64,000 nt of DNA, taken from the NCBI GenBank assembly GCA_028715115.1, contig JAQUSN010000002.1:132944-196943 (forward strand). The letters are read 5' to 3'. Each line of letters begins with the position of its first letter. Positions within the stretch are counted from its first letter, which is position 1. Below, piece by piece: positions 12,040 to 50,812 of this stretch. The notes under the pieces are model-generated. The model searched no databases, was not told where the DNA came from, and saw only the letters and a program-made list of their open reading frames with translations. Both the position numbers and the translations under genes were made by a program. The stretch is from Patescibacteria group bacterium (GTDB taxonomy: Bacteria > Patescibacteriota > Patescibacteriia > UBA2591 > UBA4787).

Positions 12040-12064
12040 CCGGCGCGGAACTAGTCCGCGCCGG
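12040..12064 (-). terminator. Intrinsic terminator for the minus-strand GC-rich operon (ccggcgcgga / tccgcgccgg). The stop codon sits in its loop and a T-rich run follows on the minus strand.
   Basis: Perfect 10-bp GC stem. Confidence 0.6.
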
Positions 12065-12269
12065 GAGATGGTTCTTGCTGCTGGAAGAGTGCCTTGTTCG
12101 GCATGCCGTCGGTTATGACTACGAGAACAGAGATGAGGGCACTGCCTATCTGCCACAGGATGAGTCTGATCACGAAAGGGCCCGGCATCATACAGAGCCC
12201 GATAGTGAGTCCAAGCCAGGCGCCTATGATAGACCAGAATATCACGTCTCTTGTCCCTAGATCCCTCAT
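12051..12269 (-). CDS. GC-rich small 2-TM membrane protein (72 aa), second gene of a two-gene GC-rich operon.
   Basis: Its ATG overlaps the upstream stop (ATGA). It has two hydrophobic helices and is visibly GC-rich in an AT-rich genome. Confidence 0.5.
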   Translation of the reverse strand: MRDLGTRDVIFWSIIGAWLGLTIGLCMMPGPFVIRLILWQIGSALISVLVVITDGMPNKALFQQQEPSPGAD

Positions 12270-12490
12270 GACGTCCCCGTAGGGCGGGCGTCAAGAGGCG
12301 TTTTTTCCGTAGCGATTTCGTACAAGAAAACCAGGATCAGGCTGATCACTAACCAGGCGCTGGTCAGTAACGGGACGCCCAGGCCGATGCACAGAACCTT
12401 CCATAGGTTCAGCATGTCGAAGTGGCAGATCCAGATGACGTACTTGATGCACGTCACGAACCAGACGATGAAACACACTAGAGAAATCAC
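12266..12490 (-). CDS. GC-rich small 2-TM membrane protein (74 aa; weak resemblance to PLD_N/YxlE-type small membrane proteins).
   Basis: GTG start with AAGGAGG 5 nt upstream. A promoter-like TTGACA ... TATAAT element lies upstream on the minus strand. GC-rich. Confidence 0.5.
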   Translation of the reverse strand: MISLVCFIVWFVTCIKYVIWICHFDMLNLWKVLCIGLGVPLLTSAWLVISLILVFLYEIATEKTPLDARPTGTS

Positions 12491-12577
12491 TCCTGCCTCC
12501 TTAGTTAGGTTGTATTTAATATTATATATTTTTGGTTAATTGTCAATCCATTTATACACCGAATATCTTAAATAACC

Positions 12578-12606
12578 TTGACAAGTTTCCCCCTTTATTT
12601 TATAAT
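12578..12606 (+). promoter_or_regulatory. Near-consensus sigma70-type promoter for rplY (TTGACA, 17 nt, TATAAT).
   Basis: Exact hexamers with 17-nt spacing, about 30 nt upstream of the rplY ATG. Confidence 0.65.
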
Positions 12607-12637
12607 TTTATCACTAACTATCTAAGTATTATTTGAT

Positions 12638-13324
12638 ATGACATTATCATTAAAAGCCAAAAGCCGTACGATTACTGGCGGCAAGGTAAATGAATTAAGG
12701 AAAGAAGGCCAAATTCCGGCTATTGTTTACGGCCATGGTTTTAAAAATGTAAACATTATCGTTTCTGATGGCGATTTTAAAAAAGTTTTTAAAGAAGCGG
12801 GCGAGAGTAGTTTGGTGAGTTTAGTCGTTGACGATGCTAAGCCGATTCAAGTTTTGGTTCACGATATTCAATATCAACCGCTTAAAAACACCATTCAACA
12901 CATTGATTTTTATCATGTCAAAGCTGACGAAAAAATTACTGCCGAAGCAGGCTTACGTTTTATCGGCGATGCTCCGGCTGTTAAAGAATTAAGTGGCGTT
13001 CTTGTGACCCCAATTACCAAAGTTAAAATCGAATGTCTACCCAAGGACCTGGTTCATGAATTAGAAGTTGACATTTCAACCTTAAACACCTTTGAAGATG
13101 CAATTAGAATAAAAGATTTAGTTGTGCCTGCAGGAATAAAAATTGTCGGATCGCTTGACGAAGTTGTGGCTTTAGTTGAAGCACCGAGAAGCGAAGAAGA
13201 ATTAAAGAGCTTGGAAGAAAAGCCAGAAGCCAAAGTTGAAGATGTTAAGACCGTAAAAGAAGAAACCAAGGCTGCCGAAGATAAAATCGAAGAAGAAAAA
13301 ACTACAGAAAAAACAGACAAATAA
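12638..13324 (+). CDS. rplY: Ribosomal protein L25 / general stress protein Ctc (long form with acidic/lysine-rich tail).
   Basis: N-terminal L25 fold sequence (KSRTITGGKVNELRKEGQIPAIVYG). Confidence 0.85.
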   Translation: MTLSLKAKSRTITGGKVNELRKEGQIPAIVYGHGFKNVNIIVSDGDFKKVFKEAGESSLVSLVVDDAKPIQVLVHDIQYQPLKNTIQHIDFYHVKADEKITAEAGLRFIGDAPAVKELSGVLVTPITKVKIECLPKDLVHELEVDISTLNTFEDAIRIKDLVVPAGIKIVGSLDEVVALVEAPRSEEELKSLEEKPEAKVEDVKTVKEETKAAEDKIEEEKTTEKTDK

Positions 13325-13329
13325 AAAAA

Positions 13330-14352
13330 ATGAAATCATATAGACATTTAAAACGAAACGATTTGGTTTTGTTTGGGTTAATTTTTATTTTACCCATTTT
13401 TTTATTATCCGGATGTACGAAGCCGACGCCGACTCAAATCGAAAACCAAGAACCAATCGGCCAGCCGAACTCATTGGACGGTGAGTATGTTTCGGTCAAT
13501 GTTGATTTAAAGCCGGTAGCTGTTTGTATTGATAATTTTTTTGTTTCTCGGCCGCAATCGGGATTAAATCAAGCTTCAATAGTTTATGAATTGCCGGTTG
13601 AAGCTAATATTAGCAGATTTTTAGCTGTTTATCGCGGAGATAAATTACCCGACAAAATTGGCCCAGTTCGTTCAGCTCGTCCATATTCGGCAGCTATTGC
13701 CGATGAATATCGCGCAGTTTATGTTCATGCCGGCGGCAGCCCGCAAGCTTTATCAGAGATTGCCAAAGATACTTACTGGATTAATAATATAGACGGATTG
13801 ACCAAACAAGATGTATATTTTTGGCGCGATAAAAATCGCCAGGCTCCGTATAACCTATATACTTCGGAAAATCAAATAGCTAAATTTAAACAAGACAATC
13901 AAATAAACAATATTGCTGATTTTACTTCTTGGCTATATGTTGATTTTAAAGAAAATGGTCAAGATTTATCAGATATAAAAATTACCGGTTATTTTGAACC
14001 AGTAGTTTGGAGTTACAATATTGCCACCAAAAAATACGAAAGATTTTTATTAGTTAACGGCCAAAAAGAAAAATTTATTGATGATAATAATGTCCAAATT
14101 AGTGCCAGTAATGTCATCGTACTTTTTACTAAGGTTAGCGTAATTGATAAAATCGGCCGGAAGCAGATTGATTTGGTCAGTGGTGGCAAGGCTTCAGTTT
14201 TTAATCACGGAGTTAAAACAGAAGGAACTTGGGAGAAAAAAAATAATCGGACAATCTTTTTAGACGCGTCCGGTCAAGAAATACCATTAATGAGGGGTAA
14301 TACTTGGGTTGAGATTATTTCTGCGGCAACAGGCACTCTTTCAAATCTTTAA
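13330..14352 (+). CDS. DUF3048-family lipoprotein (YerB-like).
   Basis: Signal peptide with lipobox LSGC. Similar to the DUF3048 core ([14 protein letters not shown]...ISRFLAVY...PVRSARPY). Confidence 0.6.
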
Positions 14353-15352: not shown

Positions 15353-15508
15353 AAAATAAAATACATTAATCAGTTTTTAACTAATTTAATGCATGTGTAA
15401 AAGAAATAATGCTATTGTCAAGCGAGTGAAGAATAAAGAAAAAAATATTTTTTTCTTTTTTGATCCGCCAACTGGCGGAAGCGCCGACAACACAGGGCAA
15501 AATGCCCT

Positions 15509-15784
15509 TTATTTTTTGCTTTTAGCCTTTTTAGTTTTATTGGCGGTTCCAGTGGTTTTGGTAGTGGGCTTGTGCATTTCTTGGCCCTTGGCGACCATTT
15601 TTTTAAACCTTTCTAATCGGCCGCTCGTATCTAATAATTTTTGTTTGCCGGTGAAAAATGGATGGCATTTCGAGCAGACTTCGACGTGGATTTCCGGCAT
15701 AGTCGAACCAACGGTTAAAATATTACCACAGCTGCAAATAATTTTTGCTTTAGGATAATACTTAGGATGAACATCTTTTTTCAT
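15509..15784 (-). CDS. rpmE: Ribosomal protein L31 with a K-rich C-terminal tail.
   Basis: [10 protein letters not shown]... and the CxxC...CxxCHPF zinc ribbon. Confidence 0.85.
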
Positions 15785-15979
15785 ATTTGGGAGATTAATG
15801 AATTATGTGGAAATTATAGCATACCTTAAAATATTTGACAAGGCCGGTTATCAAATTTCTAGGCAAGAGATAGGGGAAAAACGCCATAATATCTATTGCC
15901 AAAATTATTGCTATAGTATATAATGTAATAGCGAAAATTAAAAATCGCTTAATTAATATTTAGTAAAATTTAATTTTTT

Positions 15980-17527: not shown

Positions 17528-17554
17528 ATATTAATTTTATAATTTTATTTTACT

Positions 17555-18139
17555 ATGGCGAACGTTGAACTATTAAAAAGGTTGCGCGAGGACACCGGCG
17601 CAGGGATGAGCGATTGTCAAAAGGCTCTCGAAGAAGCTAAGGGCGATTTTGATAAAGCCGTCGAATATCTAAGAAAGCAAGGGCAAAAAATTGCCTTAAA
17701 TAAATCCGTCCGCACTATGCGCGAGGGCATTATTGACGCTTATGTCCATGCTAATAAAAAACTCGCCGTGTTGGTTGAAGTAAGCTGTGAGACTGATTTT
17801 GTAGCGCGCAATGAAATATTTAAAAATTTTGTCCATGATGTAGCCATGCAAGTGGCCGCGGCCAATCCGCGTTGGCTTTCTCCGGAAGATGTACCGGCAG
17901 AAGAAGTAGCGAAGGAAAAGGAAATTTACATTGAAGAATTAAAAAGAGAAAATAAGCCGGCCGAAATGATCGATAAAATTGCCACCGGCAAGATTAATAA
18001 ATTTTACACCGAAACTTGTTTGCTTAAACAAGCGTTCATAAAAGACGACAAAAAAACAATCGAAGACTTATTAAAAGAAGCAATCGCCAAAACTGGCGAA
18101 AATCTCAAAATTCAGAGATTTTGTCGCTTTAATATATGA
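17555..18139 (+). CDS. tsf: Elongation factor Ts (short form).
   Basis: N-terminal UBA-like LLKRLREDTGAGMSDCQKAL. Confidence 0.9.
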   Translation: MANVELLKRLREDTGAGMSDCQKALEEAKGDFDKAVEYLRKQGQKIALNKSVRTMREGIIDAYVHANKKLAVLVEVSCETDFVARNEIFKNFVHDVAMQVAAANPRWLSPEDVPAEEVAKEKEIYIEELKRENKPAEMIDKIATGKINKFYTETCLLKQAFIKDDKKTIEDLLKEAIAKTGENLKIQRFCRFNI

Positions 18140-19017
18140 TTTTAATTTGCCAAATTGCTCCTTGGGATAAGCCCCTTGAAGTTTCGCAAACCGGCGAGAA
18201 CGATGATATCGATAATAGTCATAACCTGAAAGTCGGAGATAAGATTATAATCAAAAACGAACAGGGGACTGATTTGGCGATGATTATAAAAATAAAAGCA
18301 GAGAGAAATAAAACGCCGGAATGCGACGACTGCAAAGAATGTCCTGGTGCAGTAGCCGTGGCTAAGGCCAACCCTTCTTTTCAGACTACGGCAGCCTTAG
18401 TCCGCAGAGCTACGATGAATGATTTGGATAAACAGACTAAAAAGGAAGAACACAAGCAATCATGTTTAACTGAATGCGAACAATTGATAAAAAAACACAA
18501 TTTGCCGATGAAGCTGATAGATGTAATCTTTCACTTTGACGGCGGTCGAATAACCTTTGCTTTTACCGCGGCCAACAAAGTTGATTTCCGCGAACTAGTC
18601 AAAGATTTGGCGAAAAAAATGCATCGCTCGATTCGTCTATATCAAGTTGGCGCGCGGCAAGAAGTTGAGATGACCGGCGACATTGGCCCATGCGGACAAT
18701 CTTTGTGCTGTATGAGTTTCCTGGAAAAATTAGGCAATGTAACGACCGAATTGATATTTGATCAACAAATAGCGCACCGGGGCGTCGATCGTTTGTCCGG
18801 CCCGTGCGGTAGATTAAAGTGCTGCTTGTTATTCGAAGAAGATAATTATAAAGAGTTGGCAAAAAATTTTCCAACGCAAGGCAGTTTTGTGAGAACTCCC
18901 CACGGAGACGGCAAAGTATCAGGATGGAAAATTTTGCGCCAAACCGTTATGGTAAGGATTGATGATGAAACGATGGTTGAAGTGCCGATTAGTGAAATAA
19001 AAAAAATCGAAAAATAA
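18136..19017 (+). CDS. PSP1 C-terminal domain protein (YaaT/RicT-like).
   Basis: Conserved Cys motifs GPCGQSLCC and GPCGRLKCC. ATGA overlap with tsf. Confidence 0.65.
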   Translation: MILICQIAPWDKPLEVSQTGENDDIDNSHNLKVGDKIIIKNEQGTDLAMIIKIKAERNKTPECDDCKECPGAVAVAKANPSFQTTAALVRRATMNDLDKQTKKEEHKQSCLTECEQLIKKHNLPMKLIDVIFHFDGGRITFAFTAANKVDFRELVKDLAKKMHRSIRLYQVGARQEVEMTGDIGPCGQSLCCMSFLEKLGNVTTELIFDQQIAHRGVDRLSGPCGRLKCCLLFEEDNYKELAKNFPTQGSFVRTPHGDGKVSGWKILRQTVMVRIDDETMVEVPISEIKKIEK

Positions 19018-22958: not shown

Positions 22959-22987
22959 TTGACAAAATCATAAAAATGCGTTAATAT
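22959..22987 (+). promoter_or_regulatory. Consensus promoter for the GC-rich gene (TTGACA, 17 nt, TAATAT).
   Basis: Seen directly in the sequence. Confidence 0.55.
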
Positions 22988-23049
22988 AATAAAAGTGGCG
23001 GCATAAGTCGCTGCAAATTCCGATTATTTAGATAACGAAAGGAGTCCTC

Positions 23050-23427
23050 GTGGACGAAGCCCTGATCGGATTGATTATCCCCAAGTCTCCTTGGGCTATG
23101 GCCAAGGAGGCGAATACGCTGGGTGCGCTGATAACCATACTGCGCACTTACTACTTCTTCATGGTGGGCGTGCGCGACTGGAGACAGGTCGCAAACAACA
23201 TCAACGAGACATCGGTGCAGATTGTGGAAGAAACATCCAGCTGCGTAAGAGCAGAGGTTGATTTCACGGTTATGACCGATGCAGGTCTCTTCATCGGCGC
23301 GATGGCCGTGCACGTCAAGGCGCTCAATGCAACTTTGGCCGACAGCAGAATGACACAGCTGTCGACCTGGCTACAAAGAGCGATCGGCAACAGTACGTTC
23401 GTTCAGGTGATCCTGAGGACGAGATAG
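23050..23427 (+). CDS. GC-rich hypothetical protein (125 aa).
   Basis: GTG start with AAAGGAG 5 nt upstream. Consensus promoter and downstream terminator. Visibly GC-rich. No motif recognised. Confidence 0.5.
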   Translation: MDEALIGLIIPKSPWAMAKEANTLGALITILRTYYFFMVGVRDWRQVANNINETSVQIVEETSSCVRAEVDFTVMTDAGLFIGAMAVHVKALNATLADSRMTQLSTWLQRAIGNSTFVQVILRTR

Positions 23428-23446
23428 ACGGAGGTTTGACCATTCG

Positions 23447-23477
23447 GAGCCGTCGGCTTAGGCCGGCGGCTCTTTTC
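23447..23477 (+). terminator. Intrinsic terminator (gagccgtcggc / gccggcggctc, then a T-run).
   Basis: GC stem plus T-run. Confidence 0.55.
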
Positions 23478-23496
23478 TAATTATGCACAATTTCAA

Positions 23497-23727
23497 TTGA
23501 CGCAAATAAATAAGCAGAATATAATAAAAGAGATGGGGACTGGCACCACGCCTCAACTGCTGGGCCTTTAATGCCTCATCGAACGCATAAACTGGAGGTT
23601 ATCTATGCTGAGACGGCTTCTGAAGGACGAGAGCGGATAGTCGAGACGACGAAGAAGCGGAGCTCGCATAACGCGAGCTCGCACTCCCGGGGCGCACTGC
23701 GCTCTGGGAGTTTTTTTATGGAGTGGA
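23497..23727 (+). other. GC-rich mini transcription unit: exact TTGACG, 17 nt, TATAAT promoter (23497-23525); SD GGAGG; 11-codon ORF MLRRLLKDESG (23605-23640); strong 12-bp terminator plus T7 (23694-23727).
   Basis: All elements seen in the sequence. Possible small RNA or leader peptide. Confidence 0.35.
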
Positions 23728-23767
23728 TAACTTTAATTTACAAATTTTATTTATAAAATATAATAAA

Positions 23768-23985
23768 AAAAGACAAAGACAGAATCATTGTGTAAGTACA
23801 CCGGGTCTACGGATCCGGTGGGCATACCCAGGGAGGTATGAGATTGGTTTGGTAAGCTGAATGCCCGGCTAGCCCTTGTTCCGAATTCTTAGGAGCCCGG
23901 AGCCGAGGTACGCCAGGGAGAGCAGCGCCAGCCCCGGGGATGCAGATTGAGCTTCAGCTCTCTGCTCCCCGGGTATTATTTTTTT
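23768..23985 (+). ncRNA. Candidate GC-rich structured RNA of about 220 nt ending in an intrinsic terminator (cccgggga / tccccggg, then T7). Identity unknown.
   Basis: Non-coding and roughly 60% GC by eye. A promoter-like TTTACA ... TATAAT element lies upstream. The strong terminator at 23933-23985 is immediately before the rplJ promoter. Confidence 0.3.
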
Positions 23986-24008
23986 ATCTGGTCTGGGGAT
24001 AACTCTCG

Positions 24009-24204
24009 TTGACACTTAATTATTTTTGATTATACTAATTATATCTTAACCGTAGACAGTGTGGCCTTCGACGAATCGTCGGAGTTAATACACCAGCCCA
24101 CCGAGGTCAAAAGACATTTTATTGTCTGCGGTTATCCGCAGATTATTTATTATTACGAATTACATATTTTTAGATTTAATTTTTGGTTTTTAATTTTACT
24201 TTAT
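24009..24204 (+). promoter_or_regulatory. rplJ promoter (TTGACA, 16 nt, TATACT) and structured L10 leader with hairpins cgacgaatcgtcg and ctgcggttatccgcag.
   Basis: Promoter hexamers and several stem-loops in the 170-nt 5' UTR. Consistent with autoregulatory L10 leaders. Confidence 0.5.
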
Positions 24205-33870: not shown

Positions 33871-33921
33871 TATTTAAATTTTATACCTAAAAAACATATT
33901 TAAATAATATAAAAAAGATTT

Positions 33922-35058
33922 ATGATAATTTCGGAACTAAAGGAAATATTTGGTTGGTCAACAGAAAGAGATGATTTTATTATCGGAAAAGATAGTTTTT
34001 CAGACCTGCAAATAAATTCGACACCATTTGAGCAATTTTATTATTTTTTTCATCAAAAAGACAGAAGACTAATAAAGCAATTTGTTCTTAACAAGGGTAA
34101 GCGAGTAGACCATATATGCAGAGTGGATCTTATAAAAAAAGATAGTAAATTTGCACCCCGATTATCATTTTCCATCCGCGATAAAGCAAGAAAAATAACA
34201 GAGCAAGAGGAGGCAGAAAAAACTAATATAAAAGCTAACGTTAGTTTATGTGATTGTTCTAATAATTTTTGGAAATTGATTTCTTTTCTTAAAACATTGC
34301 AGGACATAGAAATTCCAGAAGACAAATTCTCTCTTGTGTCTCAAAAAGAAGAAGAAATTGTATCTGCCCTGCATAATCGAGGATCAGGTAGTGTTTTAAA
34401 TATTATTAAACAACTTTCACAATCACCAGATATTTCCTTAACACAAGAAGATGTTAATTCTCTCTTAAAGAGAAGAGAGAAATTAATTAATTTCGAAGAG
34501 GCTCTAAAAAAATATCAAAGTGATGAAGGATGGTGGCAAAATTTTTTTGAACAAAATAAATGGATTTTTGGTTATGGTTTAAACTATGAAATTCTGAAGA
34601 ACCAACAATCACAGCCACATTATGGAGGCGATAAAGTTGATGGATCTGGCGGTCAGCGGGGCGACAACCTTATGTCTACAACTGGCGATTTAAATTTTAC
34701 AGTTTTGGTTGAGATAAAAACTCCAGCCACCAAGCTTTTACAGGGAGTGCAAGAAATTAGAAATGGTGCGTGGAGCTTGTCTAAAGATCTAACCGATGCT
34801 TTGTCTCAAATACTAGCGAACATTCAAACATGGGATAAATGTGGATCAGAGCAACCAGCGAATAGGGATAAACTCGAGAAAGATTCAGTTTTTACTATTA
34901 AACCAAAGGGCATTATTGTTATTGGCGCGCTGGGTCAGCTTGATGATAGAAATAAAAGAGAAACATTTCAACGTTTTAGAAAATCGGTTCACGGAATCGA
35001 TATTATTACTTTTGACGAATTATTTGAAAGAGCTCAATTTATTGTTCAAAGTGATTAG
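33922..35058 (+). CDS. Hypothetical protein with a C-terminal PD-(D/E)xK-like motif (GDLNFTVLVEIK); possibly DUF4263/Shedu-like.
   Basis: D...E.K arrangement in the C-terminal third, and the size. Assignment by eye only. Confidence 0.4.
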   Translation: MIISELKEIFGWSTERDDFIIGKDSFSDLQINSTPFEQFYYFFHQKDRRLIKQFVLNKGKRVDHICRVDLIKKDSKFAPRLSFSIRDKARKITEQEEAEKTNIKANVSLCDCSNNFWKLISFLKTLQDIEIPEDKFSLVSQKEEEIVSALHNRGSGSVLNIIKQLSQSPDISLTQEDVNSLLKRREKLINFEEALKKYQSDEGWWQNFFEQNKWIFGYGLNYEILKNQQSQPHYGGDKVDGSGGQRGDNLMSTTGDLNFTVLVEIKTPATKLLQGVQEIRNGAWSLSKDLTDALSQILANIQTWDKCGSEQPANRDKLEKDSVFTIKPKGIIVIGALGQLDDRNKRETFQRFRKSVHGIDIITFDELFERAQFIVQSD

Positions 35059-35066
35059 GGTTTTAA

Positions 35067-35627
35067 ATGTCATATTTAATGAAAAAATTAGGAGAAATAA
35101 AAATTGCGTGGTTGGTACTGTGGACTTGTTCTGGTCAAAACGAAGATGAATGTTTAAGAAAAGTAGGTATTTATGAAAAAGTTGCGGATATAATTAGTGC
35201 GAGGAAAGATTTTGACCAAATTATTGAAATTGCAAAAGATATTTATAAGCAAAAGATGCTCTCATTTTCAAAGAGGATTTATCTTTCTAATTATTCACTG
35301 GGGAATAAACGTAAGAAAGAATTTTTTAGCACAGAAGTTCCGGTTTTTACGCACTATCAATCTGATGTTTATAGAACTTTAATGAAATTAATTCAAGAAA
35401 AAGGGATTAAAAATAAAAAAGCAGAAAAGATGTCTGAAAGATGGAGTAGACATCCTCAATTCATAACGGTCGGACATAATCCATGCCTCGAAATAACTAA
35501 AGTGTTCAATTTATCTGTTTCTGAAGATAAAAATGGTGAGGAATTTTTAGAATGGGATCGTCTATTAGCAAGTGGTAATTTTAAGAGAGAAGAATATAGG
35601 CGCAAAAAAATAAATTATGGCCAATAA
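35067..35627 (+). CDS. Hypothetical protein (accessory island gene 3).
   Basis: ORF only. Confidence 0.4.
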   Translation: MSYLMKKLGEIKIAWLVLWTCSGQNEDECLRKVGIYEKVADIISARKDFDQIIEIAKDIYKQKMLSFSKRIYLSNYSLGNKRKKEFFSTEVPVFTHYQSDVYRTLMKLIQEKGIKNKKAEKMSERWSRHPQFITVGHNPCLEITKVFNLSVSEDKNGEEFLEWDRLLASGNFKREEYRRKKINYGQ

Positions 35628-36246
35628 ATATTTAAAGAGAAAGATTAGAAATTATGAAATATATAAAACAATGCTTATATCTATTTTGATGTGTTTGTCT
35701 TTTTTTACTGGCGAATATGTTTATTCTAAAAAATTTTTTGGTGATATTATAGTAAACATTATAGTGGGGCTGGTTCTTGGTATCATTGGTGCAATTTTGA
35801 CTATTATTTTTGAGAATTACATGATTAGTCAGGCTCGTTATAGAAAAGGGCTTGAATTGGAATCACAGGTAGAAGATAAATTAAAAAGACTAAGAATTAA
35901 ATATGAACCCCACCTAGAAGATGGTCACGGTGATTTGGATTTTTTACTTAGTGGAAATAATAATTTTTATGGGATAGAAGTTAAAAATCAATCAGGCCTT
36001 ATAAGATTTGAAAATAATAATCTTATGATTTCTAATTTTAAGAATACCTATATTTTAAAGAACTTATTAAAACACTGTAAACTAATTAGAGATATAAAAT
36101 TTGGAGATAGTTCAGATAGATTCATTAAACCCATACTCATTTTTGGTTATAAAGCTGTTGTTGATATCCCACAAAATAAGATCAAGTTCAATAATGTAGA
36201 AATTATAGTTGCCACTATTAATGATTTTGAGCGCTATATTATTTAG
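35617..36246 (+). CDS. Membrane-anchored NERD-domain (nuclease-related) protein.
   Basis: N-terminal TM helices. GDLDFLLSGNNNFYGIEVKNQSG matches the NERD / PD-(D/E)xK core (D..D.LL.G....Y.IE.KN.SG). Confidence 0.5.
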   Translation: MANKYLKRKIRNYEIYKTMLISILMCLSFFTGEYVYSKKFFGDIIVNIIVGLVLGIIGAILTIIFENYMISQARYRKGLELESQVEDKLKRLRIKYEPHLEDGHGDLDFLLSGNNNFYGIEVKNQSGLIRFENNNLMISNFKNTYILKNLLKHCKLIRDIKFGDSSDRFIKPILIFGYKAVVDIPQNKIKFNNVEIIVATINDFERYII

Positions 36247-36267
36247 TTGTTATTAAAATTCGGCAGC

Positions 36268-36300
36268 GATTTTGCGTCCGCCTCCGCCCGTATTCTCAAT
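36268..36300 (+). repeat. 33-bp GC-rich direct repeat, left copy: gattttgcgtccgcctccgcccgtattctcaat.
   Basis: Matches 36881-36915 at about 28 of 33 positions. The core is CCGCCTCCGCCCG. Confidence 0.7.
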
Positions 36301-36336
36301 ACTCTGACTTTGAATAAATTAAAATAAATAAATAAA

Positions 36337-36882
36337 ATGATAAAAATAAAACGGGGAAGACAATTATCTAAAGAATTTATAAAGCAATGGAACACCGCTG
36401 TTGACAGAGAATTTGAATGTAATGAGTTTTTAGATCCACAAAAAAGAAATAGTTTTTCAAAAGATATTTTTTTCATACTTACTGAAAAGAAAAAGATAAA
36501 ATCAATAGCAAGAATAAAGGAATATTCTGTTATTTTTGAAGAAAAACGATATAAAGTCTTGGGCATTACGGATATGGTTTCTTTAAAAAAGGGTCATGGT
36601 TATGGGATAAAATTAGTTAAATCCATGATTAGATATATTAAAAAAACTAAAAAAACGGAAATAAGTTTCTGTCATCCAAAAAATACTAATTTTTATAAAA
36701 AAGGCGGATTTATAATTATAAAAAATGCAGTTAAACAGTTTTATTACAAAGATAAATCAGGTAAGGTTATAAAAAATAATTGGGATAAAGATCTCCTTTG
36801 TATAAATGGAACAGATAATCTAATAAATAAAATTAAATCTTATCCCAAACAAAAGATACAAATGTCAACCAAATTTTTCTGA
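36337..36882 (+). CDS. GNAT-family N-acetyltransferase.
   Basis: Motif A-like KKGHGYGIKLVKSMIRY. Confidence 0.55.
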   Translation: MIKIKRGRQLSKEFIKQWNTAVDREFECNEFLDPQKRNSFSKDIFFILTEKKKIKSIARIKEYSVIFEEKRYKVLGITDMVSLKKGHGYGIKLVKSMIRYIKKTKKTEISFCHPKNTNFYKKGGFIIIKNAVKQFYYKDKSGKVIKNNWDKDLLCINGTDNLINKIKSYPKQKIQMSTKFF

Positions 36883-44214: not shown

Positions 44215-44853
44215 ATGAAAACAAAACTCAGTAATTTAATTTTTATCATCATTATTCTCGCTTCTATTGTGGTGGGCGTGTGGGCATATTCGCGACTGCC
44301 GAGCGTTATTGCCACGCACTGGAACGCGGCCGGCCAGGTAGATGGTTATATGAGTAAGTTTTGGGGAATATTTTTAACCCCGATAATAATGATATTCATG
44401 TTTATTTTGTATTTAGTTATTCCCAAAATAGATCCGTTAAAAACCAATATCGCGTCATTCGGAAAATATTATAATTTATTTTGGATTTTATTCGAAGTAT
44501 TTCTACTTTATATTTATGTTTTGCAATTAGGTTGGAATTTTGGTTGGCAGTTTAATTTTTCCGTCATGATTATTCCCGCCTTTGCTTTTCTCTGGTATTT
44601 TTTGGGCGCGTTTTTACCCAAAGCAAAACGCAATTGGTTTTTCGGCATTCGCAATCCCTGGACGCTTTCGAGCGACGTAGTTTGGGAAAAGACCCATCGT
44701 TTGGCCGGAGCGTTTTTTAAGGCTGCAGCTCTAATCTCACTTATCGGATTTTTCTTTCCAAGCAGTTCGATTTTTTTCGTGATAATACCGGTTTTAGCAT
44801 TTGCCATCGCCACATTTATTTATTCATATGTGCAATTTAAAAAATTAAAATAA
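44215..44853 (+). CDS. SdpI/YhfL-family membrane protein (DUF1648 plus SdpI-like).
   Basis: GIRNPWTLSSDVVWEKTHRLAG motif and polytopic topology. Confidence 0.6.
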   Translation: MKTKLSNLIFIIIILASIVVGVWAYSRLPSVIATHWNAAGQVDGYMSKFWGIFLTPIIMIFMFILYLVIPKIDPLKTNIASFGKYYNLFWILFEVFLLYIYVLQLGWNFGWQFNFSVMIIPAFAFLWYFLGAFLPKAKRNWFFGIRNPWTLSSDVVWEKTHRLAGAFFKAAALISLIGFFFPSSSIFFVIIPVLAFAIATFIYSYVQFKKLK

Positions 44854-44877
44854 GAACGATATACTTATATAAGAAGC

Positions 44878-44905
44878 AAAAACGAACCGAATTGGTTCGT
44901 TTTTA
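44878..44905 (+). terminator. Intrinsic terminator (aacgaacc / ggttcgtt, then a T-run).
   Basis: Perfect 8-bp stem followed by ttttt. Confidence 0.65.
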
Positions 44906-44964
44906 TATAAGCAAACCCCCCGACCAAACGTCGAGGGGGTGCACGTAAGTGCATTGAACCTCCT

Positions 44965-45174
44965 TTAGCTCTGAAATGTTATCTTGCGCCAGGTTATCCT
45001 GACGAGCGTGACCGGTATCAGAACGGCTATCGTGGCATAGAACCGGAGTCGTTTGAGCGCCTTGTCCATCCATTCGGCAATTACCACCATCAGCCAGATG
45101 ATGAGCTTGCCCAGTTCAGCAGACTCAGCGCTCGACGGTCCGTAGGGATCGGTGGGCGAGAAGTCGTTGTTCAT
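44965..45174 (-). CDS. GC-rich small 2-TM membrane protein (69 aa).
   Basis: ATG with AGGAG 5 nt upstream. It is driven from a palindromic divergent promoter. A GC-rich hairpin terminator lies downstream (44907-44940). GC-rich. Confidence 0.5.
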   Translation of the reverse strand: MNNDFSPTDPYGPSSAESAELGKLIIWLMVVIAEWMDKALKRLRFYATIAVLIPVTLVRITWRKITFQS

Positions 45175-45192
45175 AATAACTCCTATATAATA

Positions 45193-45251
45193 AATATAGC
45201 ATATTTTTTACACTTAGTCAATATTGACAAAAACTAAAAATATGCTATATT
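45193..45251. promoter_or_regulatory. Nested palindrome forming symmetric divergent promoters. The outer 16-bp inverted repeat (aatatagcatattttt / aaaaatatgctatatt) supplies a TATATT -10 on both strands. The central palindrome gtcaatattgac supplies TTGACA (+) and TTGACT (-).
   Basis: Seen directly in the sequence. Spacings are 16 nt (+) and 17 nt (-). Confidence 0.6.
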
Positions 45252-45276
45252 AAAAATAACCTTAAAGGAGGTTCGT

Positions 45277-45654
45277 ATGTTCGAACGTGCAGATTCCGGA
45301 AGCGGTCATCGTTTCCCCGAACCGCCCGAGCCGGCAGAAAACTTCCGCTGGTTCATGGAAGCCAGCCATGCCCACCGCGTCCTACCGATCCGCGTAGTCG
45401 GTGGCCCCCTGAAGTCCCTTAACGGTGACGGGCTCTTGAGCCTTGAGTTCGCTCTGGCCCGCAGAAGCGGCCGCCGGAATGAGCCCATGGTCGCCGAGAT
45501 CCACGTCCTCAGTCACGAGCAGGTTACCGACAGCATGATGTCGGTAATCGGTCCGGTAGTCGCCGTTGACGGTTTGCGAACCGAGTCGCACCGGTCGGCG
45601 ACAATCACCTTCGATCACATCAAGCAGACGGGAACGTTGCGGTTTCTGCAGTAG
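45277..45654 (+). CDS. GC-rich hypothetical soluble protein (125 aa).
   Basis: AAAGGAGG 7 nt before the ATG. A perfect terminator lies downstream. One 60-nt stretch of the ORF counted by hand was 37/60 GC. Confidence 0.55.
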   Translation: MFERADSGSGHRFPEPPEPAENFRWFMEASHAHRVLPIRVVGGPLKSLNGDGLLSLEFALARRSGRRNEPMVAEIHVLSHEQVTDSMMSVIGPVVAVDGLRTESHRSATITFDHIKQTGTLRFLQ

Positions 45655-45669
45655 AGTTCCCGAGCACCC

Positions 45670-45702
45670 GAGCGCCGAGGTCCTCTCGGCGCTCTTCTTT
45701 TT
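45670..45702 (+). terminator. Intrinsic terminator (gagcgccgag / ctcggcgctc, loop gtcct, then a T-run).
   Basis: Perfect 10-bp stem. Confidence 0.7.
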
Positions 45703-45726
45703 ATATATTTTAAAACAAAAAGAGAA

Positions 45727-45754
45727 GGCGAGCCGCAAAGAACTGCGGCTCGCC
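45727..45754 (-). terminator. Perfect 10-bp hairpin (ggcgagccgc / gcggctcgcc) with a T-rich run on the minus-strand side. Candidate terminator of a minus-strand transcript from the 45.76-46.1 kb structured region.
   Basis: Seen directly in the sequence. Confidence 0.4.
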
Positions 45755-45757
45755 ATG

Positions 45758-45960
45758 TAACGGGAGGGCGGACCTGCCCACAAACGGTCGACTTGACTTT
45801 GCTCCCCTTGCCCAAGTCAGTGGTCGACTGTCCGCCTCCTGGCGTACCCCGTGAAGTACATCGATTCAGTCAATCCTGGCACATATTTCCGTCACAGGAC
45901 TCGCAGTAGAGTGACAGAAAAGCGCGGGTCCTTCGTTCACCACGCCCCAAAGGAGGTTAT
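45758..45960. other. GC-rich structured noncoding segment. It holds a long imperfect hairpin (gggagggcggac ... gtccgcctcc enclosing gtcgacttgactt / aagtcagtggtcgac) and further stem-loops. Candidate sRNA or cis element.
   Basis: No ORF has start signals. It contains an orphan AAAGGAGG with no start codon in range. Several long complementary segments. Confidence 0.3.
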
Positions 45961-46213
45961 ACGATATAGGGACAGGATTTAACCGATGTACGGAAGGAAA
46001 CCCATTTAAGGGAAAAGGGACGCCAATAACACCTCCGATTGTGATATAATAGCAGAAAGGTAAAATTTTGTCAAGTCCCAAAGTGGCATTATAAGGTGGT
46101 TTTATTAACATTTAGTCAGAGCTAAACTTGATGATTTGCACATTAATGCTTCCAATTATTTAGTAAAATGGTATTATATATATTATTAGTTTAATCATTA
46201 AAAACATATAATT

Positions 46214-46681
46214 ATGAAAAAGGGCCAGGTCGTTATCTTTTTATTAACAATTATTGTCGCGCTAACCGGCAGTGTTATTACAGATTTAGGTATGAACTGG
46301 TACGGAATGATTAATTTGCCCAATTTTACGCCGCCAGGGGCTATGATTGGTCTTGTTTGGACGCTTATATTTATTTTAGCAATGGTTTCGGCGATGATTA
46401 TCTGGAGAAGAAAAGAATTTAGCAGAATTTATCGCCAACAAATAATGATTTTATTCGGCGTGAATGCATTTTTGAATATTTTTTGGAGTTTTTTATTTTT
46501 CTCTGCGCATAGTTTATATTTTTCTATTTGGGAAGCGGGGCTATTGGGTTTATCAGTATTGGCTCTAATTATATCTATTTGGCCAAAATCCAAGACAGCC
46601 GCCAGCTTATTAATTCCATATTTTCTTTGGGTTAGCTTTGCTACATATTTAACATATTCAGTTTGGTTATTAAATAAATAA
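46214..46681 (+). CDS. tspO: TspO/MBR-family tryptophan-rich sensory protein.
   Basis: Five-TM Trp-rich protein with TspO motifs (LNIFWSFLFF, PYFLWVSFATYL). Confidence 0.8.
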   Translation: MKKGQVVIFLLTIIVALTGSVITDLGMNWYGMINLPNFTPPGAMIGLVWTLIFILAMVSAMIIWRRKEFSRIYRQQIMILFGVNAFLNIFWSFLFFSAHSLYFSIWEAGLLGLSVLALIISIWPKSKTAASLLIPYFLWVSFATYLTYSVWLLNK

Positions 46682-46711
46682 AAAAGATTGAGAACAATCT
46701 TTGTAAATAAA

Positions 46712-46745
46712 GGGCGGGACTCCGGTTAGGGAGCCCCGCTTTTGA
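46712..46745. terminator. Bidirectional terminator between tspO (+) and the GC-rich minus-strand gene (gcgggactcc / ggagccccgc, then tttt).
   Basis: Imperfect GC stem with T-runs on both sides. Confidence 0.5.
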
Positions 46746-46762
46746 AAGCCGAACGGCCGCGA

Positions 46763-47044
46763 TCAGGTTGTGGGCTTGGGGGCGGGGACCACGTGGGCCC
46801 AGAAGTTGCAGCCCAGAGGGTCGCCGATCATGAGTGCATCACCGCGCCCCGGCTTCTTCTCGGAGATCACGAGAAAGCCTGTTCCGTTGGGCGGAGGGGA
46901 GACCCACCTCTGGTTCGTCGGATCGAAGCCGACCATTGCCTCGGAATAGGCCGGGCTTATCTCGTGGGGTTGAGAGGGGATGACGGTGCCGTCAGCGGGG
47001 AAGACAACCGTTCCGCTTACCGGCGTAGTTGCGCCTTCGGTCAC
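46763..47044 (-). CDS. GC-rich hypothetical protein (93 aa).
   Basis: GTG start with AAGGAGG 5 nt upstream. A TTGACA, 16 nt, TATATT promoter on the minus strand. GC-rich. Confidence 0.55.
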   Translation of the reverse strand: MTEGATTPVSGTVVFPADGTVIPSQPHEISPAYSEAMVGFDPTNQRWVSPPPNGTGFLVISEKKPGRGDALMIGDPLGCNFWAHVVPAPKPTT

Positions 47045-47093
47045 GAATACCTCCTTAGGGTAATGAATGTAGGGGACTTACTCGAACATTTAT

Positions 47094-47172
47094 AATATAC
47101 AACTTTTATACATTTTGTCAAGATTACAGGTGAATTTTATTAACTTGACTTTTGACTAAAATCGTTTATAAT
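47094..47172. promoter_or_regulatory. AT-rich divergent promoter region. Minus strand: TTGACA (47116-47121) and TATATT (47094-47099). Plus strand: TTGACT (47145-47150), 16 nt, TATAAT (47167-47172).
   Basis: Seen directly in the sequence. Confidence 0.55.
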
Positions 47173-47197
47173 ATAAAACAACAGGAGGAATTACCGA

Positions 47198-47629
47198 ATG
47201 AAGTCATTGCTAACCGCAATCGTGATCGTGGTGGTAATAATCCTCCCGTCACGACTGGCGGCACAACCCGTTTCCCCGTGGTCCAAGGTCTGTCTGGAGA
47301 GCTCGTCCGACGAATGGAGCAGGTGCGAAAGATACACGCGCCTGATTGATTCGTCAGGATCATGGATTGTCATCAAGAGGACGCTTTCTCGCGATGGGAT
47401 ACTGGTTCTCGACGTTTCCTACCAGGCGAGTACCGACAGTATCAAGTGGGCATGTTATGATGTCTGTGATGATACGGTCAGCGGCACTGGTGACATTGAA
47501 GCGATCCTCGGCGACATCTACGACTACTGGCAGGATGGCGTCTTCGCAGACCTACCGATCGTGGTTCGTGGAGGGGTGTGGTCAATGATCGCCCCCTTCA
47601 AGCTATCGGAGGGCGAGCTTAGTGAGTAG
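47198..47629 (+). CDS. GC-rich secreted protein (143 aa; signal peptide, 4 Cys).
   Basis: AGGAGG 8 nt before the ATG. N-terminal signal peptide (MKSLLTAIVIVVVIILPSRLAAQP). GC-rich. Terminator at 47634-47667. Confidence 0.55.
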   Translation: MKSLLTAIVIVVVIILPSRLAAQPVSPWSKVCLESSSDEWSRCERYTRLIDSSGSWIVIKRTLSRDGILVLDVSYQASTDSIKWACYDVCDDTVSGTGDIEAILGDIYDYWQDGVFADLPIVVRGGVWSMIAPFKLSEGELSE

Positions 47630-47745
47630 TATCGGCCGGGCATGGCGCGAAAGCGTCATTCCCGGCCTTATATTTTAATCCCCAGTCGCGATTGACAAAC
47701 TCGGTTTATGCTTCATAATTAAATATTAATTCGTGATTTCATTTA

Positions 47746-48378: not shown

Positions 48379-48401
48379 TTTGTAATGTAAATTTATAATA
48401 T

Positions 48402-48599
48402 ATGGCCTATAGTAAGTGTAAAAAATGCGGCATGCCGCTAAAAAATGAAGAAGGCGCCGAAGATAGTTGCGCTTGTAATCAAGATCTTTGTAAGTATTGT
48501 TGCGAGTGCAACTTCGGCTGCCAATGTGGCTGCAAGGAAGAAAGTGAAGGACGAAACGACACGAATGAAAGCGATGACTTTCAAAACAACGTAGAATAA
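48402..48599 (+). CDS. Small Cys-rich protein (65 aa; metallothionein-like or zinc-ribbon).
   Basis: 15 Cys in CxxC / CxC / CC arrangements. Host-like AT-rich codons. Confidence 0.4.
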   Translation: MAYSKCKKCGMPLKNEEGAEDSCACNQDLCKYCCECNFGCQCGCKEESEGRNDTNESDDFQNNVE

Positions 48600-48660
48600 C
48601 CCGGAGGACCGGAGGAAAAGAAAAAAAATAACAAAAATACTAAAAATTTTAGTAAAGATT

Positions 48661-50037
48661 TTGTTTTTTACGAAAAATATTATGAAGATTAAATTTTGGG
48701 GCGGAGTAGGGGAGGTTACCGGTTCAAATCATCTTTTAGAAGATCAAAATAATAAAATTTTGATCGATTGCGGTATGTTTCAGGGCGCCGACCAGGCTTT
48801 CGAAAAAAATAGCGCCGATTTTTCATACGACCCTCATGAAATTGAGGGTGTTTTAATTACTCATGCCCATATCGACCATATCGGTCGTTTACCTAAGTTA
48901 GTTAGAGACGGTTTTGATAAAAACATCTATTCTACGGCGCCCACCAAGGATATGGCTTATCATCTTTTGCTGGATTCTTATGCGATTATGAGCAAAAACT
49001 TTGCCACCAAAAATATGGTTATTTATGATGAGGCCGACATTGCAAAAACGATGTCTTTATGGAAAGTTGTGCCATATCACCATAAATTTTCTATTAAAAA
49101 TTTTGACATAGAATATATTGACGCCGGTCATATTTTAGGTTCAGCGTCGCTGAGAATAACTTCAGGCAATAATAAAATATTATTTTCCGGCGATTTGGGT
49201 AATGTACCTTCGCCAATAGTAAAAGATACGGAATATTTTACTGAATCAGCCGATTACGCATTGCTTGAATCGACCTATGGCGCTAGGATTCATGAATCAG
49301 CCTCCAATAGAAAACAATTATTGAAAGACCACATCATCGATGCTGTTCGTAAAAAATCTGTTTTATTAATTCCGGCTTTTGCCATGGAACGTACACAAGA
49401 ATTATTATATGAAATTAACGATATGGTAGAAAAAAAAGAATTGCCCGCCGTGCCGATTTTTGTTGATAGTTCGTTATCTATTAAATTAACTAAAATCTAC
49501 GATAAATATTCAAGTGATCCAAATTTTTTCGACCAAGAAGCCATAAAATTAATTAAAGCAGGCGACGATATTTTTAATTTTGCCGGTTTAACATATACTC
49601 CGACCGTTGAAGAATCGAAAAAAATAAATGATTTTCCGGCGCCCAAAGTCATTATTGCCAGTTCAGGTATGAGCGAAGGCGGTCGCATTATTCATCATGA
49701 AGTCAGATATTTACCTGATCCCAATGCCACGATTTTGTTTGTCGGATTTCAAGCGTATGGCTCCAAAGGCAGGCAGGTTTTAGATGGAGCCAAAAAAATA
49801 CAAATTTTAGGCCAAGAGATAGATATTAAAGCGCAAGTTAAAAAGATTGGCGGATATTCTGCTCATGCTGATCAACCCTTGCTTTTAAAATGGGCAAAAG
49901 AATCTAAGAATGGCTTGAAGAAAATGTTTATTACCCATGGCGACTTGGATCAGGCTCAGATTTTAGCTAAAAAAGTCAACGACGAGACCGGCGTAGAAAC
50001 AATTATTCCTGGATTTGGCCAGACCATCGAATTATAA
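48661..50037 (+). CDS. Metallo-beta-lactamase / beta-CASP family ribonuclease (RNase J / CPSF-like).
   Basis: HAHIDHIG (HxHxDH) and a C-terminal beta-CASP region with GYSAHAD. Confidence 0.8.
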   Translation: MFFTKNIMKIKFWGGVGEVTGSNHLLEDQNNKILIDCGMFQGADQAFEKNSADFSYDPHEIEGVLITHAHIDHIGRLPKLVRDGFDKNIYSTAPTKDMAYHLLLDSYAIMSKNFATKNMVIYDEADIAKTMSLWKVVPYHHKFSIKNFDIEYIDAGHILGSASLRITSGNNKILFSGDLGNVPSPIVKDTEYFTESADYALLESTYGARIHESASNRKQLLKDHIIDAVRKKSVLLIPAFAMERTQELLYEINDMVEKKELPAVPIFVDSSLSIKLTKIYDKYSSDPNFFDQEAIKLIKAGDDIFNFAGLTYTPTVEESKKINDFPAPKVIIASSGMSEGGRIIHHEVRYLPDPNATILFVGFQAYGSKGRQVLDGAKKIQILGQEIDIKAQVKKIGGYSAHADQPLLLKWAKESKNGLKKMFITHGDLDQAQILAKKVNDETGVETIIPGFGQTIEL

Positions 50038-50052
50038 ATTATTTATAAGAAA

Positions 50053-50074
50053 GCCGCCCCGGTTAAGGGGCGGC
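50053..50074. terminator. Bidirectional terminator (gccgcccc / ggggcggc). It overlaps the 3' coding end of the minus-strand Cys-rich gene.
   Basis: Perfect 8-bp GC stem between convergent genes. Confidence 0.6.
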
Positions 50075-50302
50075 AGTAAACATGGACGGGGATTGACCTC
50101 TGTGGCGGACCCGTGTCCGGGTTTGTCTGGGCCGAACGAGCGGGGAGATGGGGCAGGCGATCATCTTCTCTTGATAGTATCTTGAGCAAGTAGCGCAGCA
50201 GGACTTAAGACATTTGTTGGTCTTGGGGCATCCTTTTGCCAGGTTACATCCTTCGCAGCATGGATGTAGTTTGCCACCACAGCCAGCAGGGTTACTGTCC
50301 AT
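50063..50302 (-). CDS. GC-rich Cys-rich small protein (79 aa from the SD-preceded Met; 11 Cys in CC/CxxC patterns, metallothionein-like N-terminus, basic tail).
   Basis: GGAGG 7 nt upstream of the ATG at 50302. The ORF-track ATG at 50326 has no SD. A TTGACA lies at about 50356-50361 on the minus strand. GC-rich. The last 8 codons are encoded by the terminator hairpin. Confidence 0.45.
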   Translation of the reverse strand: MDSNPAGCGGKLHPCCEGCNLAKGCPKTNKCLKSCCATCSRYYQEKMIACPISPLVRPRQTRTRVRHRGQSPSMFTAAP

Positions 50303-50812
50303 AGGAGAGCCTCCATAGTTTGGCATATCTATAGCTTAATACTATTTTAGAGGTTTGTCAATTATTTATTTATATATTTATTTTACGACACTTGATAATT
50401 TAATTATCTTTTTTTGTTTATTTTAATAATCAGATTTTTAATAAAAGAGGCTTAAGTTTTATTAAAATCATTGTTAAAAAGGGGAAACATGGACTAAACC
50501 GATAAAATCGAGCATATCTGATAAATAACTGAACTTAGATACATATCCTTGATCTATTACCTATGTGCCCTACAATTTTAAAAAATTTTTATAATAAAGT
50601 TGAGATAGATATCAAGAATAGAGCAGTGAAAAACAAAAAATATTTTTTTAATAAAATAGATGGAGTATATATCATCTTTTAAGGTTAAAAAACAAACAAA
50701 ATAGGCCTTTTATTAGAAGACCTATTTTGTTGAAGATCCTGACTTGGCTTCGTAAAAGGTATATTGTGCGACGCTGTATATCTAGAAAAACCTTATATCC
50801 CCTTTAATATAT

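Follow-up and report, generated by a model that had tools for sequence, protein, structure and literature searches.

The window analysed here is a 64-kb stretch of contig JAQUSN010000002.1 (assembly GCA_028715115.1) with a guanine plus cytosine (GC) content of 37.6%. It derives from a Patescibacterium of Parcubacteria type, and our subject is a set of small, GC-rich gene cassettes dispersed between its housekeeping genes. The window holds housekeeping genes typical of the candidate phyla radiation (CPR), namely those for L25, RF-1, S2, EF-Ts, ArgRS, L10, L7/L12, DnaE and ThrRS, together with genes for a beta-CASP RNase J-like protein, ClpB and a form III RuBisCO with AMP phosphorylase. NCBI records of the matching sequence name the source 'Patescibacteria group bacterium', and the nearest representative genomes in GTDB are Parcubacteria/Paceibacteria-type metagenome-assembled genomes (MAGs) with RNase J identities of at most 53%. 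Neither the window nor any of the fetched loci contained a 16S rRNA gene, and a scan of the window found neither tRNA nor tmRNA.

A fine GC profile revealed five GC islands (12031–12470, 23031–24010, 44911–45970, 46681–47710 and 50021–50320), which hold eight open reading frames (ORFs) of 69–143 amino acids (aa) at five intergenic sites. GC-rich small-gene cassettes at five loci of an AT-rich genome had been reported in a preliminary description of this DNA; this was borne out, as the ORFs have 53–64% GC on the 37.6% background. That description counted nine products, where we found eight, and its list of loci stood but lacked three further GC-rich promoter-terminator units (23497–23718, 23737–23986 and 45727–46074). 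The tally comes to about ten units, seven of them protein-coding (six monocistrons and one two-gene unit) and three apparently non-coding. All transcription units together occupy about 3.9 kb, or 6% of the window, and their neighbours are rplY, a pyrH-like gene, rplJ, TspO, NUDIX and RNase J genes. The units are listed below; promoters and terminators come from consensus scans of the cassette regions, unless stated otherwise, and are predictions from sequence.

12040–12064, minus strand: intrinsic terminator of unit U1, 10 pairs, 9 of them G-C; the loop contains the ORF 1b stop codon
12051–12269, minus strand: ORF 1b, 72 aa, predicted protein with two transmembrane segments; ATGA overlap with ORF 1a (putative translational coupling), without a strong Shine-Dalgarno (SD) motif
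12266–12490, minus strand: ORF 1a, 74 aa, GTG start, predicted protein with two transmembrane segments; AAGGAGG at 12496–12502, 5 nt upstream; GC at third codon positions (GC3) 0.76
12519–12546, minus strand: U1 promoter, TTGACA-16-TAATAT, back-to-back with the native rplY promoter at 12578–12606
22959–22987, plus strand: U2a promoter, TTGACA-17-TAATAT
23050–23427, plus strand: ORF 2a, 125 aa, GTG start, AAAGGAG at 23038–23044; ORFan
23446–23473, plus strand: U2a terminator, 12 pairs, 9 of them G-C
23497–23718, plus strand: U2b, promoter TTGACG-17-TATAAT, predicted GC-rich transcript of about 190 nt; terminator 23683–23711
23737–23986, plus strand: U2c, promoter TTTACA-16-TATAAT, predicted GC-rich structured transcript of about 220 nt without an ORF; terminator hairpin 23932–23973, then a T run
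44916–44938, minus strand: U3a terminator, 9 pairs, 7 of them G-C
44965–45174, minus strand: ORF 3a, 69 aa, predicted membrane protein with two transmembrane segments; AGGAG at 45180–45184
45193–45251, both strands: divergent U3a/U3b promoter, TTGACT-17-TATATT (minus) for 3a and TTGACA-16-TATATT (plus) for 3b
45277–45654, plus strand: ORF 3b, 125 aa, 61% GC, AAAGGAGG at 45264–45271; ORFan
45670–45694, plus strand: U3b terminator, 11 pairs, 8 of them G-C
45727–46074, minus strand: U3c, promoter TTGACA-17-TATTAT (46046–46074), predicted structured GC-rich transcript of about 320 nt; terminator 45727–45754
46714–46739, minus strand: U4a terminator, 10 pairs, 8 of them G-C, 10 nt from the AT-rich terminator of the native TspO gene
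46763–47044, minus strand: ORF 4a, 93 aa, GTG start, 64% GC; AAGGAGG at 47050–47056
47094–47121 (minus strand) and 47145–47172 (plus strand): divergent U4a/U4b promoters, TTGACA-16-TATATT and TTGACT-16-TATAAT, respectively
47198–47629, plus strand: ORF 4b, 143 aa, with an N-terminal signal-peptide-like segment; AGGAGG at 47183–47188
47634–47667, plus strand: U4b terminator, a nested GC hairpin with a T-rich tail, identified by eye because the scanner does not cover loops of this length
50053–50074, minus strand: U5 terminator, 8 pairs, all G-C, 16 nt past the native RNase J stop codon; the loop contains the ORF 5 stop codon
50063–50326, minus strand: ORF 5, Cys-rich; a start at ATG 50302, which has GGAGG 7 nt upstream, gives 79 aa, and one at ATG 50326 gives 87 aa
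50333–50361, minus strand: U5 promoter, perfect -35 TTGACA (50356–50361) and weak -10 TAAGCT, read from the sequence and not listed by the scan

The alternative ATG of ORF 5 at 50326 would fall near the 5′ end of the transcript. The region 45193–45251 is a near-perfect 60-nt palindrome with two mirror-image promoters, in which a 16-nt exact inverted repeat spans both -10 regions. Immediately downstream of ORF 3a is a 29-codon ORF (44865–44954, minus strand), which extends across the hairpin of the U3a terminator and has AAAGGAGG 5 nt before its ATG; it may be a micro-ORF or vestigial.

The composition of the cassette ORFs sets them apart from the 59 native ORFs, the GC3 of which is about 0.35. 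GC contents of 0.53–0.64 and GC3 values of 0.56–0.76 were found for the cassette ORFs, and in seven of the eight the order GC3>GC1>GC2 indicates real coding sequences shaped under GC pressure; the exception is ORF 5 (GC2 0.60, GC3 0.56). Overlapping alternative ORFs in the cassettes have neither a codon-position GC periodicity nor an SD motif. The choice between two-fold codons is inverted relative to native genes (AAG 0.81 versus 0.20, TTC 0.86 versus 0.18), and this inversion comprises every two-fold codon as well as Ile, Leu and Val (ATC 0.67 versus 0.24). The encoded proteins also differ in content of Phe, Tyr, Met, Ile, Asn and Lys (FYMINK), which is 0.18–0.30 compared to 0.35±0.04 for native proteins. 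The comparison of GC, GC3 and codon usage with the host, proposed earlier as a check, thus placed the cassettes outside the native range, highly expressed genes included. As the ribosomal-protein genes are as distant from the cassette codon pattern as other native genes are, we rejected the idea that the cassettes represent the extreme of translational selection in this host. Gene callers trained on the host missed several cassette genes or chose the wrong strand, e.g. with an 85-aa call on the plus strand in U1, and ORFs 1a, 1b and 5 are missing from the protein collection that was searched.

The second distinguishing property is the translation start. An SD motif (AAGGAGG, AGGAGG, GGAGG or AGGAG) is located 5–9 nt upstream of seven of the eight cassette ORFs; the earlier statement that every ORF is preceded by one holds for these seven and fails for ORF 1b, which is ATGA-coupled instead. 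Native ATG starts carry no SD motif, not even a four-base SD core, in any of 53 cases (Fisher p=2e-8), in agreement with what had been noticed before, as are the three GTG starts (1a, 2a and 4a). The start regions (-25 to +35) of the cassette genes are also more strongly folded, with -11.9 kcal/mol compared to -4.1 kcal/mol for native genes (p=6e-5). Native 5′ regions are AU-rich, and seven native genes show a -35/-10 pair ending 4–12 nt before the ATG. A useful contrast is the native 76-aa membrane protein encoded at 50822–51052 (minus strand) upstream of the M23 peptidase gene, which is AT-rich and lacks an SD motif; counterparts with about 60% identity occur in the related loci L096 (12918–13136) and L095 (14941–15183). 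Native small genes therefore do not have the features of the cassettes.

Each cassette is enclosed by its own signals. Cassette promoters are among the best matches of the scanned regions, scoring 10–12 of 12, and lie in leaders of 19–37% GC. The near-exact promoter claimed for each unit was found, except that the -10 of U5 is poor. Since native operons carry equally good TTGACA-N16/17-TATAAT promoters (at 12578, 24009 and 47692), the cassette promoter is typical of the host and does not set the cassettes apart. The GC-clamped terminators reported previously do so: those with 8–9 G-C pairs, the strongest in the scanned regions, belong exclusively to cassettes.

The units U2b, U2c and U3c contain no long ORF and show no codon-position GC periodicity, and they fold better than shuffled controls (z = -3.5, -4.3 and -3.4, respectively). 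The coding capacity of U2b is restricted to a single 11-codon ORF (23605–23640) behind GGAGG, and U2b is either a non-coding RNA or a decayed cassette. No Rfam family matched any of the three, and neither a gathering-threshold scan of the whole window nor E-value scans of the loci gave a credible result, so the GC-rich non-coding units are not known structured RNAs.

Inspection of the sequences suggests that ORFs 1a, 1b and 3a encode proteins with two transmembrane segments, that the products of 2a, 3b and 4a look soluble, that 4b may be secreted owing to its signal-peptide-like N-terminus, and that ORF 5 specifies a Cys-rich peptide. None of the cassette proteins matched Pfam, NCBIfam, PHROG or PADLOC models, which confirms the earlier impression that no family can be recognised. 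A full HMMER scan of 1.84 billion representative proteins with ORF 2a returned only the query itself, as did the homology search with ORF 3b. No matches were obtained in IMG/VR for 2a, 4a, 4b, 3b and 5, in PLSDB and INPHARED by tblastn with the cassettes, among phages by blastn with 44900–47700, or by tblastn with the cassette proteins in 141 fetched loci (1.89 Mb). The cassettes share no sequence with each other, and all-against-all comparison revealed no paralogy. The AlphaFold models were too poor for a fold search, with predicted local distance difference test (pLDDT) values of 51 for 4b and 34 for 3b, and literature searches found no description of such cassettes or of these assemblies. 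The cassette products are ORFans. Small Cys-rich ORFs also adjoin RNase J genes of other Patescibacteria, in L095 (9606–9739, 44 aa, metallothionein-like) and L047 (7379–7693, 104 aa, zinc-ribbon-like, with SD motif); they parallel ORF 5, which is downstream of RNase J, only loosely, and no sequence similarity to it was found.

A single homologue was identified for ORF 4b, a protein designated P0002 with 45% identity, the amino-acid composition of which is cassette-like and not host-like; a metagenome scan for the 4b family gave no match. P0002 originates from JGI sample 3300075153. Because the same sample contains an RNase J 88% identical to that of the window, a sister species probably carries a diverged copy of 4b, which would evolve at about five times the rate of the housekeeping gene.

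Comparison with syntenic relatives showed that the cassettes are missing from their orthologous sites. In L098 (rpsB 74% identity) the order FtsW, L25, DUF3048, RF-1, S2, EF-Ts, ..., ArgRS, pyrH-like is the same as in the window. FtsW and rplY are spaced by 100 nt there, without U1, and about 200 nt separate the pyrH-like gene from the conserved promoter and leader of rplJ, compared to 1117 nt with U2a–c in the window. The loci L095, L096 and L097 (RNase J 67% identity) have the order TsaB, translin, Na/Pi transporter, ..., TspO, RNase J, ..., M23 peptidase, Glx-tRNA synthetase, GT2, LigT, radical SAM, ClpB. The TspO and RNase J genes are only 240–400 nt apart in these three loci, and no GC-rich unit was found before TspO (the site of U3), after TspO or after RNase J. 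All five cassette loci are thus missing in the nearest available syntenic relatives, at 67–74% protein identity; orthologous GC-rich genes across the clade, which had been named beforehand as the finding that would mark the cassettes as ancestral, were not seen. A comparable GC-rich, SD-led ORF was found in none of 75 other AT-rich loci scanned, and the next 8.6 kb past the window end contain no further cassette. Homology and synteny together indicate a lineage-restricted, patchy distribution.

Units with the same anatomy do occur in relatives. Long ORFs of the relatives are likewise SD-poor, and a few monocistronic SD-led units have their own TTGACA promoter and terminator. L096 harbours a unit on the plus strand (6875–7423) consisting of TTGACA...AAGGAGG-GTG, the gene of a 182-aa AAA_17 protein and a terminator, as well as two tandem SD-led units (17947–18883, minus strand; 135 and 144 aa); its LigT and radical-SAM genes, which adjoin each other in the window, have two SD-led small genes between them. 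The cassettes of L096 have host-like GC. In L018, from a Patescibacterium with 52% GC, a plus-strand unit (5803–6390) combines TTGACG-17-TATAAT, a promoter and untranslated region of 30% GC, GGAGG, a lipoprotein ORF of 55% GC and a G+C-rich hairpin terminator; its profile is indistinguishable from that of the window cassettes, whose leaders have 19–37% and ORFs 54–64% GC. These findings in L096 and L018 suggest a phylum-wide class of autonomous, SD-dependent accessory units.

Sharp AT/GC boundaries and an engineered-looking regularity might raise the suspicion of a chimeric assembly, of contamination during binning or of an artificially inserted sequence. The same DNA is, however, present in four NCBI MAG records; matches that are identical or 99.8–99.97% identical were found in GCA_028686935.1 and GCA_028713815.1 and in the Logan assemblies of six runs (SRR22315504-09), and two of the cassette proteins have four NCBI protein accessions each. 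Short independent contigs (e.g. 44320–45757, 45107–47036, 45814–47555 and 12138–13553) bridge native genes and cassettes. As independent assemblies and contigs span the AT/GC junctions, the chimeric assembly or designed inserts considered in the preliminary description are excluded, as judged from assemblies rather than reads. Promoter, SD motif, ORF and terminator are moreover coherent across the junctions, which leaves an artefact of any of these kinds with a negligible probability.

We therefore lean towards the explanation that the cassettes are laterally acquired, autonomous, moron-like ORFan units from a GC-richer source, inserted into the intergenic DNA of one Patescibacteria lineage. 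The horizontal transfer considered at the outset fits both the inverted codon choice and the absence of the cassettes from the orthologous sites of syntenic relatives. The source genome would have had roughly 55–60% GC. Codon-usage correlation does not discriminate between donors, as any GC-rich genome gives r of about 0.5–0.85. The donor may have been another Patescibacterium of higher GC, or a mobile element residing in organisms of that kind, which is plausible because a unit like that of L018, moved into a relative with 38% GC, would look as observed here; this is a lead and no demonstration. The re-promotering proposed for the transferred genes is not required, since L018 natively has the same anatomy and relatives carry such units.

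In the recipient, each unit would be transcribed independently of its neighbours from a sigma-70-type promoter in the AT-rich leader, two pairs of units being read from divergent, back-to-back promoters. Translation of the cassette ORFs would start by pairing of SD and anti-SD sequences, an exceptional mode in this organism, and the strong folding of the GC-rich start regions probably makes the SD motif necessary; native genes would initiate at 5′ ends that are AU-rich, unstructured or leaderless. The G+C-rich terminators, some of which are placed around the stop codon, would block read-through and insulate the native neighbours. The products may be small, fast-evolving accessory proteins: three with two transmembrane segments, one secreted, one Cys-rich and three soluble.

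Several points weigh against lateral acquisition. Neither a donor nor a closer homologue in another lineage was found, and with 15 billion proteins searched, homologues would be expected if the donor lineage were well sampled. The ORFs seen are all tiny and complete, and fragments of ordinary genes never occur, a pattern not expected from random uptake of foreign DNA. Neither an integrase or transposase nor a target-site duplication or common recombination site was detected. Neither target-site duplications nor shared flanking repeats were convincing; a 12-nt AT-rich repeat flanks the U2 block, probably by chance. The Arg, Gly, Ala and Ser codon families are used in the cassettes as in the host (AGA 0.27 versus 0.28, GGC 0.46 versus 0.44), which could be a sign of host adaptation or even of native descent. 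Furthermore, if P0002 does belong to a sister species, the 4b cassette is old and has not drifted to host composition, which would point to selection for high GC.

A rival explanation is that the cassettes are native, fast-evolving small genes and small RNAs, a separate SD-dependent class whose GC is kept high by selection, e.g. for stable, structured transcripts. In its favour, the four- and six-fold codon families are host-like, the 4b homologue has a cassette-like amino-acid composition although it probably belongs to a sister species, and three units appear to be structured non-coding transcripts; monocistronic small genes that are SD-led and have a promoter and terminator of their own also recur in L096, L018, L028 and L042. 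We nevertheless consider a native origin improbable, as all five loci are empty in the relatives, highly expressed native genes show no trend to the cassette codon pattern, the shift covers amino-acid composition as well as synonymous sites, and the host-like GC of the L096 cassettes demonstrates that the architecture does not require high GC. Remnants or cargo of phages or mobile elements, i.e. true morons or anti-defence genes left after integration and decay, would explain the moron anatomy (own promoter, own terminator, deviant composition) and the small ORFans with membrane or secreted products, and accessory DNA of other kinds does occur in the window, with a Shedu/NERD island and a diversity-generating retroelement (DGR), both described below. 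Such an origin is still less probable: the cassettes sit between housekeeping genes without phage genes nearby and are spread over five sites instead of forming one island, no integrase was detected among the window ORFs scanned against Pfam (all but a few), and the searches of PHROG, IMG/VR and INPHARED gave no relatives.

The selfish toxin or addiction modules that had also been proposed would be small membrane toxins resembling those of type I toxin-antitoxin loci, with the non-coding units as antitoxin RNAs. The three short products with two transmembrane segments (1a, 1b and 3a; 69–74 aa), the strong expression signals and the structured GC-rich non-coding units beside coding ones (U2b and U2c by 2a, U3c by 3b) agree with this idea. 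Antisense overlap was not found, however, and no complementarity of at least 13 nt was detected between the non-coding units and the cassette mRNAs; the cassettes show no paralogy and no toxin match in PADLOC or Pfam, and several products are soluble or secreted. A family of toxin modules is hence not supported and appears very improbable.

A broader, rather unlikely reading is a phylum-wide pool of autonomous, SD-dependent small-gene units circulating among Patescibacteria. If it exists, SD-led translation would mark a distinct accessory expression regime beside the SD-less core genes, and the high GC observed here would result either from a recent wave of transfer out of GC-richer Patescibacteria or from active selection favouring structured transcripts rich in GC. 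In a more speculative variant, the units would be captured foreign transcripts, from SD motif to terminator, that were put behind resident promoters. Foreign SD-led ORFans in a reduced-genome, uncultivated and SD-independent host would be a natural experiment on gene expression across translation regimes. The cassettes also bear on the origin of accessory small proteins in the CPR, and some of them are candidates for surface or host-interaction roles. If they are old and have remained GC-rich, they would indicate that selection acts on the GC content of particular transcripts.

Further features of the window and of the related loci deserve mention. Near the start of the window, a bAvd-like accessory protein gene (294–704, minus strand) and a reverse transcriptase gene (649–1707, plus strand) form a DGR core, the template and variable repeats and target gene of which may lie outside the window. 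This reverse transcriptase was considered as a capture mechanism for the cassettes and rejected, as it has no link to the cassette loci. A very AT-rich island (33007–36882; about 25% GC, GC3 about 0.2) encodes a Shedu SduA_C-domain protein (33922–35058), a NERD nuclease (35617–36246), a GNAT protein and unknowns, and is probably a defence island. It directly follows the ZIP transporter gene, and the same chromosomal spot in L096 holds the SD-led AAA_17 cassette (6875–7423).

DnaA-box-like nonamers (23722–23730 and 23994–24002; AGTGGATAA and TGGGGATAA) lie directly upstream of the -35 elements of the U2c and rplJ promoters. They are conserved in L098 (15960–15968 and 16054–16062), there with a perfect TGTGGATAA, and may point to DnaA-dependent regulation or to a duplicated promoter module. 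The rplJ promoter TTGACA-16-TATACT and its leader (…atcttaaccgtagacag.gtgg…; window 24009–24130) are conserved in L098 (16078–16170; 74% protein identity). The leader is probably a regulatory RNA of the L10-leader type that was undetected by Rfam, and it may contain the GTG start annotated at 24061. The AMP phosphorylase gene (Glycos_transf_3) adjoins that of form III RuBisCO (61749–63862), and an IF-2B-family gene is located just past the window end; the three genes represent the nucleoside-salvage pathway typical of CPR bacteria. In L030, from another Patescibacterium, tandem GC-rich repeats of about 40 nt (ttagaacctccccggcttaccggagagaaccttgacgggggac; 1760–2010) with an assembly gap are found directly upstream of the RNase J gene and may be a CRISPR-like or other repeat array.

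Finally, the cassettes can be compared with known systems. Like integron gene cassettes, they are small, mostly ORFan, single-gene units of foreign composition. Unlike them, they have their own promoters, are dispersed over five sites and possess no common attC-like site, and no integrase was found in the scanned ORFs. The all-against-all locus comparison gave no shared attC-like element, a dedicated attC model not having been run, and the 3′ hairpins of the cassettes are short stems followed by T runs, as is typical of terminators. With type I toxin-antitoxin loci the cassettes have in common small, apparently hydrophobic peptides, strong signals and adjacent small structured RNAs; they differ by the missing antisense arrangement and complementarity and by being heterogeneous and mutually unrelated.

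The host resembles SD-independent lineages, either of the Bacteroidota type or leaderless, in its lack of SD motifs, its AU-rich upstream regions and its near -10 boxes; SD-poor and leaderless initiation are among the genome classes distinguished by GeneMarkS-2 (PMC6028130). It differs from plain SD-poor genomes in that a minority class of strongly SD-led small genes is embedded in it. Acquired ORFans and atypical genes (genomic islets) share with the cassettes a deviant GC3 and codon usage, short length, lack of homologues, restriction to a lineage and intergenic location. Classical bacterial ORFans are AT-rich relative to their host, whereas the cassettes are much GC-richer and differ from native genes in translation initiation as well.

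The closest parallel is provided by morons, the Hendrix-type extra transcription units of lambdoid prophages, which have their own promoter and intrinsic terminator and whose accessory function is often unknown. The cassettes likewise consist of a small gene or gene pair between resident genes, with deviant composition and missing in relatives, and the moron hallmark of an own promoter and terminator around one or few genes is present by consensus match. In contrast to phage morons, they are located in a bacterial chromosome between housekeeping genes, without a prophage or phage homology, and they are GC-richer than their host, whereas morons are usually AT-richer. As the prophage context that defines morons does not hold here, the cassettes are not morons themselves; they would nevertheless work like morons.

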